The notes beneath the pieces are model-generated. The model worked only from the letters and a program-made list of their open reading frames with translations. It was not told where the DNA came from and made no database searches. Source: Candidatus Cloacimonadota bacterium (GTDB lineage: Bacteria > Cloacimonadota > Cloacimonadia > Cloacimonadales > TCS61). Taken from it: DNA of 64,000 nucleotides. Both the position numbers and the translations under genes were made by a program. The stretch is taken from NCBI GenBank assembly GCA_021108315.1, contig JAIORE010000190.1, positions 2,736 to 66,735 on the forward strand, given 5' to 3'. Of this stretch, positions 25,401 through 31,400 are shown one piece after another; within the stretch, counting starts at the first letter, position 1, and each line of letters starts with the position of its first letter.

Positions 25401-28400
25401 CGGACGAAGATTTTGCCGGTAATCCAAGAATTCACGGGCACTTTGAACCAATTTACGATCGAATAGATATGGGAGCTTATGAGTATGAGGGTACAAGTGC
25501 ACCTTATGCCTTTAATGCGTCTGACGGAGATAATGATTTTCCGGGATATGTGCAACTGCAATGGTGGTATGATTTTGATTATGAACCTGCACCTCAGTCT
25601 TTTTGGATTGCCAGATATCCCGATATACTGAATCAGCTTGATCCGGGTTCTTTTTCTTACTCCGATTATACAGCAATTCCGGGTGAAGTATATGAATATA
25701 TGATTGTTGCTATGATAGATATTGAAAATGAATTTTCTGCATCGGAACCGAACAGCGGTTACATAAAACCAAACGGTATCATTTCCGGTACCGTGTTATC
25801 TGTAAACAATAATCCTGTGGCGGGTGTAAAAGTTTCACTCGATCCGTCTTCCGGATATTGTTTGGAATTTGACGGAAGTAGTGATTCATTGAGCATTGAT
25901 GATCCTGAAGTAAATATGGATAATGATTTTACAATTGAATGTTGGTTCAAGACCACCGGAAGTGATGAAATAATTCTCAGCAAAGGTGCTCATAATTTCA
26001 AAGTAAATGCTTCCGGTCAGGTAGAATATACTGATGGTACAAACACAATCGTTCAGGATTCCTTACTTGCTAACGATAACGAGTGGCATCATCTTGCCGT
26101 GGTTAATGATGTAACCGGATCGAGAACATTATTGTATTTCGATGAATATGAAGTTGCCCGTGATTCAAGTTTCACTTTTAGCGGTTCAAGTTCCGCCGGT
26201 TTTGCTACTTCGGATTATACCGGTTTTCTGGATAATATCAAGATCTGGACTGTTGCCCGTGATTCTTCGGATATTGTGGATGGAAAGGATATTGTTACAG
26301 CCTGGGATTCTCCCGGGCTCGCCGGATATTGGGCTTTGAACGAGGGTGTCGGAAATACTATTTTCGATGCCACAAACTATAATCATAGCGGATCAATAAT
26401 CGGTTGTGATTGGTCAGAATTTGAACCGGGAGTTTTGATGGGTGCATTTACAAACGAGTGGGGAGAATATCTCATTAGTCAGATAAACTATGGCTCTTCC
26501 ACTACTTTTTCTGTGATTCCCTATAAATCCGGTCACGTTTTCCAACCCGAACAAAGGCAGATCACACTTAGTGAAAGCAATATAGCTCAGAATGATGTCG
26601 ATTTTACGGATAATTCACTAATTCCGATTACGGGTTATGTAAAATTCCAAGGAACGGAATGTCCGGTAGTAGGAGCTACGATAATGCTGAATGGATCACC
26701 GTTTGTTCCGATTACGTTGGTGGATGAAGACGGATATTATGTGATCGAAGTAGAACACGGAACAGAATGCATTGTTTCGGTGGAGTATCAGGATCACATT
26801 TTCAATCGATTCTGGAATTTGGGGGAAGTTACCTATCCGCATACAGATAAAAACTTTGACGATACGTTTAAAACCCAATTCAGATGCAATGTTGTTGGTG
26901 GTGACGATTCATACCCGATCGGAGAATTTGATGTTACGATCCAATCTGTAAACGGTTGTTATTATGATGAAATTACCGGTGCAAACTGGACCACCGGCGG
27001 TATTATGGTTCCCAATCTTCCTCCCTTGGATTTCAATGTCACTGTAGATCCTGCTGGTGATGATCCATTCAATCTGGAAATTGATGAGCAGTTTCAGAAT
27101 CTAAAAACAGCTTTGATATCACTGACCAATACCGACGAAATTCTTGATACACTGCAATTTGTCTGGAAAGCAGATCTGGAGATTGAAGTAACTTGGTCTG
27201 ATACACTTGTTTCATACACATTTACGGAATATCCGGATAACGAGTTTTACGTTCTACAACAGAATGAGTGGTGTGCTATAGAAATTAGCGCATTCGAAGA
27301 TTACAGCTATGATGCTCATCCTAATCAAATAACCTATCTCGATGATTGCGGATTGTCAATTCGTGACGAAGTAGGCACGCAAGGTATTACTGAGACAGTT
27401 TTTCAAGATACAACGCTTACCACTTATACATTTGCTCCATATCTGCCCAACATTCTTTCCGGCTACGACAGGCAATATCAGAATATGATGGAAATTACTG
27501 TAGAAGATACTGATTTGAATCGCTATGCAACTCAAACAGATTGGATTCTCACGGAAGGTGTGAAACCATTGGAAAGCACTTATGCCACAACTTCACCGGA
27601 GATTCCTTTTCTCATTTTACACGATCCACCGGGAGATGGTAGTTTTTCCTCTTTCGGGCAAAGCAGTAGCCATTCCATTGCGATGAGTTCTGCGGTTTGT
27701 ACGGATAGTGAGCTAGATATGTTTGCAAAAATTCATTTGGGACCTGATGTTACAACTTCGATAGGAATATTTTACAGTGTGGAAGTGGACGTTGATGTTA
27801 CTATGGATCTAAATATGGGATTTACTTTGGGAACAACGCAAACTCGGAGTCAGGAACAAGAACTCACTTTTACTACTTCTACAGAATATTCTACATCAGA
27901 TGATGATCAGGTAATCGGTGCCGGTTCAGATTTATTTGTGGGTGGAGCAATGAACCTGATTTGGGGTGTTACAAATGTTATTTCCTGGGATGAGATTGAA
28001 CAGGATGTGATTGTTGATACAAGCGTGATGGTCAGTCCCAACGGATTTGCTACTGTTTATGTTTACACAGACAATCAAATCAGAAACACGGTAATTCCTA
28101 ACTTAGAAGCTCTTGGCGATACGGCATCGGTTGCTCTGTGGAATACATATCTTATAAATAATGAAAATAATAAAGCTAGTGCAGTCCCGAATCCCAATCA
28201 TCCGCAAAATCTGTCTTTCAATGCCGGCGCAGGATATAGTTATGAAGAAGAAACTAATACAACCATTTCCCAGACCATCGAGTTTGAAACAACTGTCAGT
28301 AATGAGTTTGGTTTTGAGATTGGAGCTACTGTGAACGGAGTAGGAGGTGAATTCGGCTTCACCTACAGAACTCAGATGACGATAGGTAGTTCCAGTAATT

Positions 28401-31400
28401 CAGAATTTTCAACGGAAACTGAAACCCATTTTACGCTGGCAGATGATGACGAAACTTCTGATTTGAACGAGCTTGCAGATTATTTCACTTTGGATGTAAA
28501 AGTAGATCCTGTTTACGGAACTCCGGTATTTGATCTTGTTTCGGGTGGTTCTTCCTGTCCGTGGGAACCCAATACAATTCCCAGAGAAGGAGTTGCACTT
28601 TCTGCAAATACTTACACGGCAAGTAACCTGCTTTCCGGAGAAGAAGCTGCCTTCATTCTTACACTCGGTAATACGAGCCAAACGAGTGAAGATCGTCGAT
28701 ATTATCTTACGGTATTGCACGGCTCCAATCCGGGAGGTGCAATTGTGAAGATAAATGGAGTTCCTTTGGAAGAGAGAATGGCATTCGACGTTATCGGAGG
28801 TGAAACCGTTCAAGCGATTATGACAGTGGAACAAGGACCTTTTGCCTATGAATATGATGACCTGACTTTGGAATTTTATTCCGATTGTAATCGTGGAAAA
28901 GACGGTCCCGACGGACATTATTTTGATATGTTCAAGTCATTTGATATTTATTGGGAAGCTCCCTACAGCAGGATTTCAATAAATTCACCCGAAGATGATT
29001 GGATAATCAATAAAGTAAATGATGATACTTTGGATATTTTACTCACAGATTATGATTTGACCAAGCCGGATTTTCAATCTATTAAACTACAATACAAACA
29101 TCCGCAGGATGAGAACTGGTTTCCTGCATTTGAGATATTCCGCGACAGCCTACTTTCACATCCGCATTATATCGAAGTTTCGTGGGATGTTTCTGGAATT
29201 TCAGATGGCTTTTATGAGATAAGAGCAGCCACTACAGATAGCGTTCAAGCAGATTATTTCACAGAATCACTTTCAGGAGTTATTGACAGAACTTCCCCTG
29301 AACTCCTCGTCGATCCTTTTCCGCAAGATGAGATTCTGGAACCGGAAGACGAAATAGCACTTATTTTTATGGAAGCGATAGATCCGTTATCCGTAAATCC
29401 TGCAAATTTCTCGCTCATTATAACTCGCAACGGAATGTCGATTGGACATGATATTACATATTTTGAAAATGCTGTTTATTTGAATCCCAATATTGCCAAT
29501 TTCTGGTTTGAGAACGAAACCTTGGAAGCGGAAGTCTCCGGTCTCAAAGACCTTTACGGTAATGAAATGGAAGTTCCAATCTCTTGGGAATTTTACGTAA
29601 ACAGCAATCCTGTGAATTGGAATGTGACCAAACTCGATGTGATCAAGCCACTCGGTGAAACTATGACTTTGACTGCAAATCTCATAAATGATGGTGGACA
29701 ACACTATTCCTATGTCTTCACAGATTATGCAGATTCGCTATATCATCCAGAACTGCAATATCACGCTCCCGATTGGCTTTCCATCACTCCAACTTCCGGA
29801 CAATTAATTCCATTGGATTCACAGGAAATCAGCTTCGAGATCAGTGATCAAATAGGCTTTGGTCATTATGAAACCATAATTTATGCTCATACTTCTATGG
29901 GAAATGAAGCAATCGAAATTGAAGTGGATGTGCTTTCCAATCCACCTGATTGGTCTATAACCGAGTTCAACAATTTTCAAAGCTCAATGAGCATCATCGG
30001 TGAACTGGATTTTGAGGGAGAACTTTCTACAGATACAAACGATATTATCGGGGCATTTATTCAAGAAGAGAGCGAAGATTGGGTTTGTCGTGGAGTTGCC
30101 AATATTGAATCTGTACCGTATATTTTGGGTCATCCTTATCAGATATTCCTCACTATCTACAGCGATCTTGATGATCCTGTAAGAAATTTGGGAACGGGAA
30201 AAAATTCAAGAACGGAAGATGAAATTAGGTTCAGGGTGTGGGACAATTCCGAAAACAAGGAATACTATCAGGTAGATCACACAGTATTCGGTGGAACCTT
30301 GATGTACCTTGCCAATGAAGTTTATGGAACGCCGCTGAATCCTATAAGTATGACAACTGTGGCTGATATGGTTCAGGATATTCCACTTGCCAGCGGTTGG
30401 ACGTGGTTCAGCACAAATCTGGATATTGTTCCGAATATTATCAATGATGTTCTCGGTTCATTGAATCCTGTGGACGAGGACTACATAAAAGCTCAGACCC
30501 AATATGCGCAATATTTAACGGATTCGTGGTATGGAACTTTAACATCACTTAGCAATACTGCGATGTATAAGATTAAAATGGCGGAAGCTCAGAATCTGGA
30601 AATAATCGGTGAATTACGAGATCCGTTTGAAATCACTATTTCCTACAGCACAGGATGGAATTGGATAAGTTATATTCCGCATGTGAGTATGAGTGTGAAT
30701 GCAGCACTGAGTGATCGTACCAATATTGCCGGAGATTTCATCAAGAACCAAGCAGGATATGCATTTTATGTAGATTCTGATATTGGTTGGATCGGTTCTT
30801 TGCGGTTTATGAATCCAGACGAAGGTTTTATGCTGTATTCATCAGGAACAGGTTCATTTGAATATCCCGAATACAACATCAGAGGTAAAGATGACTTCCC
30901 TGATTTAACTCCGCTTGTTCTGAGAGATGCACCGGATTGGTCGTTTAATCCACAAGATTTTGAATATACTGCGAGTGTGACAATTGAACTTCAAATCAAT
31001 GCAATTCCGGCTACTTCAGGAAATTATATGGTTGGAGCTTTTGTGGGAGAAGACTGTCGTGGTTCTGTCACATCAATTCCTGTTTTTGATACTTATATGT
31101 ATTTCCTCACAGTCTTTTCAAATACGCAAAACGAAGATATCAGCTTGAAAATATATGATGCTGATGCCGATGAAATTATTGATCCAGCTCATTCATTTAC
31201 CTTCAATAATGATTTGATATTAGGTTCGCCAAGCACTCCTTATGAGCTTGAAATTGCCGGAGCTCTTGATATTCCGCAAAATATAATTATTGAAATCATC
31301 GGTAGTGAAGTTCAGCTAAGTTGGGATGAAGTTGCCGGAGCAAATTCTTACAAAATCTTTGCTTCTGATGATCCTAACGGAGATTTTACAGATGCAACAG

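Follow-up and report, generated by a model that had tools for sequence, protein, structure and literature searches.

β-Barrel pore formers in which each protomer has two hairpins occur in only a few known lineages, the MACPF/cholesterol-dependent cytolysin (CDC) proteins and the gasdermins, and they are central to immunity and bacterial antagonism. Each protomer contributes four strands of about 100 Å, only the distal part of which is amphipathic, and the shear per strand is low (0–0.5). In secretins (GspD, InvG, PilQ, pIV), four long strands per protomer form a very large homo-oligomeric barrel, and in trimeric autotransporter anchors and TolC, a barrel with four strands per protomer is closed only in the oligomer and anchors or serves very large surface proteins. 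The stems of aerolysin, ETX/MTX2 and Tpp (Cry78Aa) toxins, CEL-III and anthrax protective antigen (PA) carry a Ser/Thr-rich, strictly alternating hairpin with a long water-exposed stem above the membrane part. Here we analyze a 64,000-nucleotide stretch of DNA from a Candidatus Cloacimonadota bacterium (contig JAIORE010000190.1, positions 2,736–66,735; hereafter "the window"), in which two tandem giant open reading frames (ORFs), P0001 and P0002, each contain a discrete unit of about 370 amino acids (aa), the HDPPG domain, with two long amphipathic hairpins. The HDPPG region is an undescribed module with no detectable homology to known β-barrel or pore-forming families, and its co-evolution pattern suggests that the hairpins of neighboring protomers pair with each other to form a barrel.

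Both giants start with a signal peptide, and Pfam and NCBIfam models detect LamG (Laminin_G_3) domains, Chlamydia-PMP-type β-helix repeats, and CarboxypepD_reg-like and Big_5 domains in them. An earlier interpretation of the locus, made from the letters of the window alone (the sequence-only reading), had described giant secreted proteins with LamG/β-helix heads, and the signal peptides and domain matches agree with this. In P0001, the signal peptide is followed by LamG, a PMP-repeat β-helix, a β-sandwich array, the HDPPG domain, another β-sandwich array, and a long conserved C-terminal part. Neither library has a model that matches between about aa 1700 and 2070, and the domain has no sequence relative in the Protein Data Bank (PDB), so it was rightly called uncharacterized. 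The C-termini (window 31200–31555 and 41500–41889) have an FN3-like unit in last place, with a further basic tail in P0001, and a type IX secretion system (T9SS) sorting domain (PF18962/TIGR04183) was not detected in P0001 or P0002 by the Pfam and NCBIfam scans. By BLASTP, the stretch common to all family members corresponds to P0001 aa 1337–2385 (approximate boundaries), or minimally to about 1665–2385, whereas the heads are shuffled from member to member. The closest relatives of the window proteins are found in metagenome-assembled genomes of Cloacimonadota, and the source genome of the window itself contains four HDPPG copies, every one in an ORF of about 3,000 aa.

In the numbering used here, domain residue 1 is P0001 aa 1701, at window position 27554. 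The sequence-only reading had placed the domain of P0001 at 27590–28570; the location is right, and the boundaries are slightly wider (27554–28660, and 37840–38949 in the second copy). All the motif strings that it had quoted are found in both giants where it had put them. In P0001, HDPPGDGS starts at aa 1723 (window 27620), IGIF at 1770, NQIRNTVIPNLE at 1874, VNGVG at 1960, FTLADDDE at 1993, YGTPVF at 2021, and SSCPWE at 2033, and the same series runs from window 37906 to 38839 in P0002. As the genome scan had been baited with ILHDPPGD, conservation was taken from 121 sequences found only by the profile. These show that the ILHDPPGDGS string, although present, is one form of a family motif [IV]L[HR]DPPGDxS, in which H and R are about equally common. 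D24, P25, P26, G27, D28, and S30 are near-invariant, and D126, G130, W196, N203, D297, D299, D309, D318, F326, C335-P336, E338, and R344 are invariant or almost so; the near-invariant cysteine within SSCPxE is a lone one. An acid-rich conserved cluster is located in the base of the domain, and a Ca2+ site is a reasonable guess for it. Between the two copies, the N-terminal, middle, and C-terminal parts have identities of 0.67–0.73 and the two hairpins only 0.42 and 0.37, as expected from the proposal of conserved anchors and variable hairpins, and Ser plus Thr make up 31% of both hairpins versus 16% of the remaining protein. Despite this drift in sequence, hairpin length is nearly constant across phyla: between its anchors, hairpin 2 has 74–75 aa in 273 of 278 sequences, and hairpin 1 has 81 or 85–86 aa in nearly all of them. 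A length that is fixed while the sequence drifts freely would suit a stem, a ruler, or another element for which geometry is important.

An AlphaFold2 model of the domain, calculated from an alignment of 68 sequences (mean predicted local distance difference test score, pLDDT, 77; predicted template modeling score 0.61), has short N-terminal strands, hairpin 1 with strands h1a (residues 31–70) and h1b (76–113), a β-meander (127–172), two helices (173–208), hairpin 2 with strands h2a (227–260) and h2b (263–296), and a small C-terminal β-unit. The predicted turns at residues 71–75 (approximately) and 261–262 coincide with IGIF and VNGVG, which had been named as the turns, and NQIRNTVIPNLE, which had been taken for a helical spacer, starts the helix pair. 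When the 1,054-aa module that includes the flanking regions was modeled, pLDDT was about 90 for the base and the flanks and below 50 at domain residues 46–99 and 246–273, which is what would be expected of distal hairpin halves in a monomer that lacks their partner; this model contains two helices only and no partner domain for the distal halves. That the region might consist of ordinary Ig/β-sandwich repeats, which the sequence-only reading had named as a refutation, is true of the flanks and not of the HDPPG region.

The evidence on how the hairpins associate comes from co-evolution. Relatives were aligned to the domain profile, sequences with more than 90% identity were removed, and mean-field direct coupling analysis (DCA) with average product correction was carried out with 278 sequences (effective number, Meff, 254) and, after two further searches, with 425 sequences (Meff 352). 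In the larger set, there are four antiparallel ladders with z-scores from 5.5 to 9.4, namely h1a–h1b (i+j=146, mean 0.59, z 9.4), h1a–h2b (i+j=325, mean 0.58, z 7.8), h1b–h2a (i+j=340, mean 0.44, z 7.5), and h2a–h2b (i+j=521–523, mean 0.42, z 5.5), whereas the antiparallel control pairings h1a–h2a and h1b–h2b reach z-scores of only 3.0–3.2. The h1b–h2a ladder ranks fourth among the 49,770 antidiagonal windows of 24 residues in the whole domain (above the 99.9th percentile) and equals the ladder within hairpin 2. Its register is also the top one in the "even" half of the sequences (z 5.6) and in the set with less than 45% identity to the window (z 5.8). The second-neighbor (parallel) ladders are weak (0.15–0.18 versus 0.34–0.44), and the h1b–h2a signal is therefore not an indirect one that is transmitted by two intervening strands. 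Most of the h1b–h2a couplings are on the polar face (81–259, 83–257, 91–249, 93–247, 101–243, and 109–231), which indicates lateral neighbors and excludes a face-to-face stacking of two sheets via their hydrophobic sides, and all four ladder registers set hydrophobic beside hydrophobic positions. Individual coupled pairs behave like true cross-strand neighbors, judged by their residues: pair 65–81 alternates between D-D, K-E, and E-K, and pairs 57–268 and 33–292 are aromatic–Gly. Pair 41–105 (window positions near 27674 and 27866) is Cys–Cys in 57 sequences, and in the set of 425 family members, 64 have Cys at both positions. This looks like a clade-specific disulfide that would staple hairpin 1, and it also serves as an internal check of the hairpin 1 register.

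Together, the ladders close a ring h1b-h1a-h2b-h2a-h1b, and the register shift round this ring is 0–4 residues if two near-equal registers per hairpin are allowed for. The radius of a β-barrel is given by R = b/(2 sin(π/n) cos α), with tan α = S × 3.3/(n × 4.4). A barrel of four strands with S ≤ 4 would have a radius of at most 3.9 Å, which is impossible, and one of the ladders would therefore have to be intermolecular. Most likely this is h1b–h2a, because the strongest pairs, which adjoin the conserved base (31–294 and 33–292), belong to h1a–h2b. The simplest reading is a barrel of identical protomers (in formal terms, a sheet without ends would do as well), to which each protomer would contribute four strands with a shear of 0–1 per strand; closure of the barrel instead of an open sheet, and oligomerization as such, are what we infer from these couplings. 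We consider it rather probable that HDPPG domains form a barrel. Its shear would resemble that of the barrels formed by CDC, MACPF, and gasdermin proteins and not that of the small heptameric toxins. A monomeric mini-barrel of four strands and a dimeric barrel with a hydrophobic core were also considered, and both are sterically unlikely at the shear found, according to our own estimate with standard barrel geometry.

AMPHIPATHICITY and length were assessed by assigning each position of the four strands a height t above the base (in residues, one scale for all strands) and averaging Kyte–Doolittle values over the family. At t=0–12, both faces are polar and rich in Ser/Thr. At t=23–31, hydrophobic and polar positions alternate strictly in all four strands, with mean values of +2.5, −1.1, +2.1, −1.2, +1.0, −1.5, +3.0, −2.1, and +2.4; these nine residues would span about 28 Å, and the HDPPG domain thus has the alternating hairpins of bilayer length that are a feature of pore formers as a class. 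Hairpin 2 turns at t of about 32, and hairpin 1 alone still alternates up to about t=41. The polar face carries 50–80% D/E/K at residues 65, 79, 81, 85, 243, 255, and 259. By a rough volume estimate, the hydrophobic face could not point inward in barrels of 4–8 strands, because the 4–8 large side chains per rung would not fit at this shear, and with at least 12 strands an inward-facing hydrophobic side would leave an empty hydrophobic hole. The hydrophobic face would therefore presumably be directed outward, to lipid or to another protein.

The feature is not confined to the window. Word-based searches returned 377, 298, and 205 matches in three rounds, and 137 loci came up in a scan in which each species was represented by a single genome; these belong to Cloacimonadota, Ignavibacteria/Melioribacteraceae, Bacteroidota (Prolixibacteraceae and many Saprospiraceae and Chitinophagaceae), Rhodothermales, Calditrichia, KSB1, and Eisenbacteria. 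Searching 1.84 billion representatives with the profile gave 2,880 clusters at 50% identity, of which 1,392 had E-values of at most 1e-30; they comprise large secreted proteins of the Fibrobacteres–Chlorobi–Bacteroidetes (FCB) group from Cloacimonadota, Bacteroidota, Ignavibacteriota, Calditrichota, KSB1, Latescibacterota, and Gemmatimonadota. This recurrence in all three kinds of search shows that the HDPPG feature is not due to chance. Each carrier protein has one HDPPG domain. The carriers range from about 1,500 to 7,800 aa, a T9SS sorting domain (PF18962) or FlgD_ig is present in many of them, and their database names are generic ("LamG-like", "Ig-like", "T9SS type A sorting domain-containing"). 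As only 5 of 41 related genomes searched contain the domain, the gene is an accessory, patchily distributed one. A literature search for the HDPPG motif found nothing relevant.

With regard to known families, neither a PDB sequence search with the domain nor a search with the 68-sequence profile gave a significant match. The best, non-significant profile matches were both to hairpin 2 and involved stem regions, namely those of 7y79 (E 0.08) and CEL-III (E 0.3); 7y79 is Cry78Aa (PMC9363482). A Pfam scan of the 68 domain members at E ≤ 1 gave nothing recurrent beyond stray matches to OMP_b-brl (three members) and CEL_III_C (two members). Foldseek against the PDB put secretins on top (E 3e-7 to 1e-4) and matched proaerolysin with E 0.01 and a template modeling (TM) score of 0.08, and TM scores were 0.07–0.15 throughout, with root-mean-square deviations of about 30 Å. 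In a control with a viral library, the top match was a low-complexity herpesvirus prediction, "histidine-rich glycoprotein-like", with E 2e-9 and TM 0.19, and we therefore regard these E-values as inflated for long regular hairpins. In line with this, hhalign of the domain alignment versus 12 secretins from related genomes resulted in a probability of 0.07% and E 0.7, and homology to secretins was rejected; ordinary secretins are also encoded in the same related genomes. Membership in the aerolysin or ETX/MTX2 families was rejected as well, as there was no Pfam match and two hairpins are present instead of one, and a family link to aerolysin or PA, with whose strands the sequence-only reading had compared the hairpins, is not supported, TM scores being at most 0.15. 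Regular expressions detected neither the MACPF signature [YW]G[TS]H[FY]x6GG nor the CDC undecapeptide in P0001 or P0002, and the MACPF (PF01823) and Thiol_cytolysin models matched neither the giants (E ≤ 0.01) nor the 68 domain members (E ≤ 1). That the domain could be a diverged secretin, aerolysin/ETX-MTX2, MACPF/CDC, or binary-toxin B component, for which the Foldseek E-values and the weak profile matches to Cry78Aa and CEL-III might speak, is extremely improbable in view of all this. A very improbable alternative is a protease trap of the α2-macroglobulin kind with the hairpins as bait region: Foldseek with the 1,054-aa module indeed listed bacterial and human α2-macroglobulins, C3/C5, and TEP1 first, the lone cysteine of SSCPxE is near-invariant, and protease genes are nearby. 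However, TM scores were at most 0.16 here, and DSCAM, titin-like/thick-filament, and S-layer proteins scored alike, so the module matches generic strings of β-sandwiches; a helical thioester domain is missing, neither a CxEQ motif (regular expression) nor an α2-macroglobulin Pfam match was found in the giants, and bait regions are disordered and variable in length, whereas the HDPPG hairpins have a fixed length and β-ladder co-evolution. Taken together, no membership of the domain in a described family can be detected.

The comparison with the systems outlined above is therefore one of architecture. The topology of MACPF/CDC proteins and gasdermins, to which the sequence-only reading had likened the domain, is recovered in so far as there are two long amphipathic hairpins and four strands per protomer with low shear, and it is not recovered in strand order, motifs, Pfam matches, or TM scores: in the HDPPG domain, the first and the last strand are intramolecular neighbors and h1b and h2a form the edges, whereas the MACPF/CDC sheet has the order 1-2-3-4. 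Furthermore, the insertion regions are predicted to be β-hairpins already in the HDPPG monomer and are helical bundles in MACPF/CDC proteins, and the HDPPG domain is located in the middle of a giant chain, unlike its MACPF/CDC and gasdermin counterparts. Secretins have an inner gate barrel, N-domains, and an S-domain, which the HDPPG domain does not have, and they are periplasm-facing outer-membrane channels, whereas the HDPPG domain is part of secreted giants. Stems of the aerolysin and PA type have one hairpin per protomer and a shear equal to the strand number, and both differ from the HDPPG domain. The strands of trimeric autotransporters and TolC have about 12 residues, are C-terminal, and are inserted by the β-barrel assembly machinery into 12-strand barrels, unlike the mid-chain HDPPG arms of 35 residues in proteins that are often T9SS cargo. 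The earlier suggestion of a pore former is thus supported in part, on the side of assembly, since co-evolution indicates a pairing of the free arm edges that would require an oligomeric barrel, and not with respect to a family link to known pore formers. Toxins of the MACPF (BSAP) and CDC-like kinds are already in use among Bacteroidota (PMC12853789, PMC11169675).

A mechanism can be proposed on this basis. Sec would export the giant, followed in most relatives by the T9SS, and the variable N-terminal head (LamG, β-helix, or, in relatives, thrombospondin type-3, TSP3) would choose and bind the target. The two hairpins would project side by side from the base as a four-stranded arm of about 110 Å with the order h1b-h1a-h2b-h2a, and the free edges h1b and h2a would pair between neighboring protomers, resulting in a large low-shear barrel with four strands from each of them. 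The distal amphipathic zone would enter a lipid membrane, the hydrophobic side being directed to the outside of the barrel and the charged or polar side to its interior, and the polar proximal third would be a water-exposed stem. The product may be a lytic pore, an anchor, or a conduit, and proteolysis may be the trigger, as the sequence-only reading had suggested. This membrane may be that of a neighboring cell or the producer's own outer membrane, and as the window giants, unlike most relatives, have no recognizable T9SS sorting domain, it is worth considering that they may anchor themselves in the outer membrane of the cell that makes them. For the full chain, in which HDPPG modules assemble into a large barrel whose distal zone inserts into a membrane, we see slightly less than an even chance. 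More tentatively, and with more doubt than confidence, the domain may have evolved independently and represent a new superfamily of giant β-barrel pore formers with two hairpins, a bacterial counterpart of MACPF/CDC proteins and gasdermins with another strand order, that forms part of surface-displayed or secreted FCB-group giants and is directed by exchangeable LamG, β-helix, or TSP3 heads to neighboring cells for contact-dependent killing, predation, or attachment.

Several observations weigh against membrane insertion or against the assembly on which it depends. Hairpin 1 extends about nine residues beyond the tip of hairpin 2, and its alternating stripe (t=23–41) would be about 55 Å long; as this is about twice what a bilayer needs, membrane entry is a step that we infer. 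There is also weak alternation at t=13–21, an additional weaker stripe, and the heavily charged polar face would equally suit a solvent-exposed surface. The domain lies in mid-chain of very long proteins (1,500–7,800 aa), and the T9SS should keep many of these attached to the cell that produces them; no known pore-former family matches in the Pfam and PDB sequence and profile searches; and among the ten neighbors of eight distant loci there is no conserved partner or immunity gene, just varied regulators and surface proteins. As to the assembly, the h1b–h2a register is only second best in the "odd" random half of the sequences, and when the 149 sequences added later are analyzed by themselves, the same register is on top, but with a z-score of just 2.3.

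Some of these points would be accommodated by a barrel or collar that does not enter a membrane and bundles giant chains into a rigid surface appendage, its hydrophobic stripe being covered by other protein parts. The same co-evolution cycle applies to such a structure, a stripe that exceeds the bilayer and a strongly charged polar face cause no difficulty, and the many members that are T9SS cargo should remain on the producer surface. There is also a precedent for oligomeric T9SS giants, as GhpA of Aureispira (Saprospiraceae) is a heptameric T9SS substrate that forms grappling hooks (bioRxiv 10.1101/2024.01.29.577165). However, GhpA as a relative was rejected, since it is built of Ig repeats unrelated to the HDPPG domain and is absent from the fold-search matches. 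Moreover, by our estimate from standard barrel geometry, a hydrophobic inside would be too crowded at n ≤ 8 with the shear found and would leave an empty hole at n ≥ 12, and the AlphaFold model of the 1,054-aa module offers no partner domain that could cover the distal halves; we thus judge a barrel of this kind to be fairly unlikely. Also unlikely, and somewhat more so, is a monomeric rigid β-ribbon that would serve an adhesin as spacer or binding blade; the h1b–h2a coupling would then be an artifact caused by phylogeny or by the small number of sequences. In its favor, the AlphaFold model of the monomer is self-consistent, h1b–h2a is the weakest ladder to replicate, and the flanks are ordinary β-sandwich arrays typical of adhesins. 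But this ladder has rank four in the domain and the same register in independent subsets, the second-neighbor ladders are far weaker, the bare 55-Å hydrophobic stripe of a free monomer would be insoluble, and rigidly fixed hairpin lengths would be unusual for a decorative arm.

If the pore-former proposal is correct, a further unrelated and very widespread two-hairpin module would show another way in which the same physical problem has been solved, and a function would be assigned to many giants now labeled "hypothetical" in uncultured phyla that dominate digesters, sludge, and sediments; a new nanopore scaffold is also conceivable. A barrel that is not a pore would still explain the multimerization of giants on the cell surface. 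In either case, the co-evolution result yields concrete residue pairs. The coordinates of all features are given in Table 1.

Table 1. Features of the window described in this study (positions are those of the 64,000-nucleotide stretch).
Feature	Position	Strand	Description	Basis or remark
Giant ORF 1	22454–31555	+	P0001, 3033 aa	ORF, library scans
Giant ORF 2	32299–41889	+	P0002, 3196 aa, tandem paralogue of P0001 with an additional LamG	
Family-wide module	26459–29620	+	P0001 aa ~1337–2389; β-sandwich domains flank the HDPPG domain on both sides	BLASTP versus distant members
HDPPG domain, copy 1	27554–28660	+	P0001 aa 1701–2069	
HDPPG domain, copy 2	37840–38949	+	P0002 aa 1848–2217	58% identity to copy 1
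[HR]DPPGDxS motif	27620–27643	+	HDPPGDGS, start of hairpin 1 strand 1	Conservation
Hairpin 1	27644–27892	+	Domain residues 31–113, turn at ~71–75 (IGIF), arms of ~40 residues	AlphaFold, co-evolution ladder i+j=146
Conserved base	27893–28231	+	β-meander 127–172, helix pair 173–208 (starts at NQIRNTVIPNLE), linker	
Hairpin 2	28232–28441	+	Domain residues 227–296, turn at 261–262 (VNGVG), arms of ~34 residues	AlphaFold, ladder
C-terminal closure of base	28442–28588	+	L-x-D-D-D, D309, D318, YGTPVF, SSCP-x-E, R344	
TPR histidine kinase	8057–9829	+		Upstream of giants
S8 subtilase giant	10165–14100	+	1,311 aa, with Big_7, MAM-like, and HYDIN/VesB-like Ig domains	Upstream
ORF of 1,111 aa	15805–19140	+	Between S8 subtilase and sigma-54 activator	No Pfam match at E ≤ 0.001
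TPR sigma-54 activator	19254–21632	+		Upstream of giants
C25 (gingipain-family) protein	42143–47284	+	1,713 aa: propeptide, peptidase, FlgD_ig, T9SS sorting tail	Directly downstream of giants

Among the relatives, a large Bacteroidota subfamily of about 1,600 aa combines the HDPPG domain with TSP3 (Ca2+-binding) repeats and a T9SS tail, which replace the LamG/β-helix heads, and its culturable carriers include Flavilitoribacter nigricans and Emticicia sp. Other carriers of the domain that can be cultured are Phaeodactylibacter luteus, P. xiamenensis, and Maribellus maritimus. A tandem giant pair is also present in another Cloacimonadales chromosome (OY771587.1, 1827545–1853941), with a third copy elsewhere in it. 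In the window, the S8 subtilase giant is another large secreted protein of the same cluster. Genomes of related Cloacimonadales contain about 20 C25 paralogues each, and in two other genomes one of them lies within about 10 kb of the giants; their proximity is a weak and non-independent hint that the giants may be linked to proteolysis. The TPR histidine kinase and the TPR sigma-54 activator flank the cluster of surface-protein genes in the window, and HDPPG family members in other phyla also adjoin regulators, including AraC, 7TMR-DISM, and TPR proteins and an FG-GAP sensor kinase.

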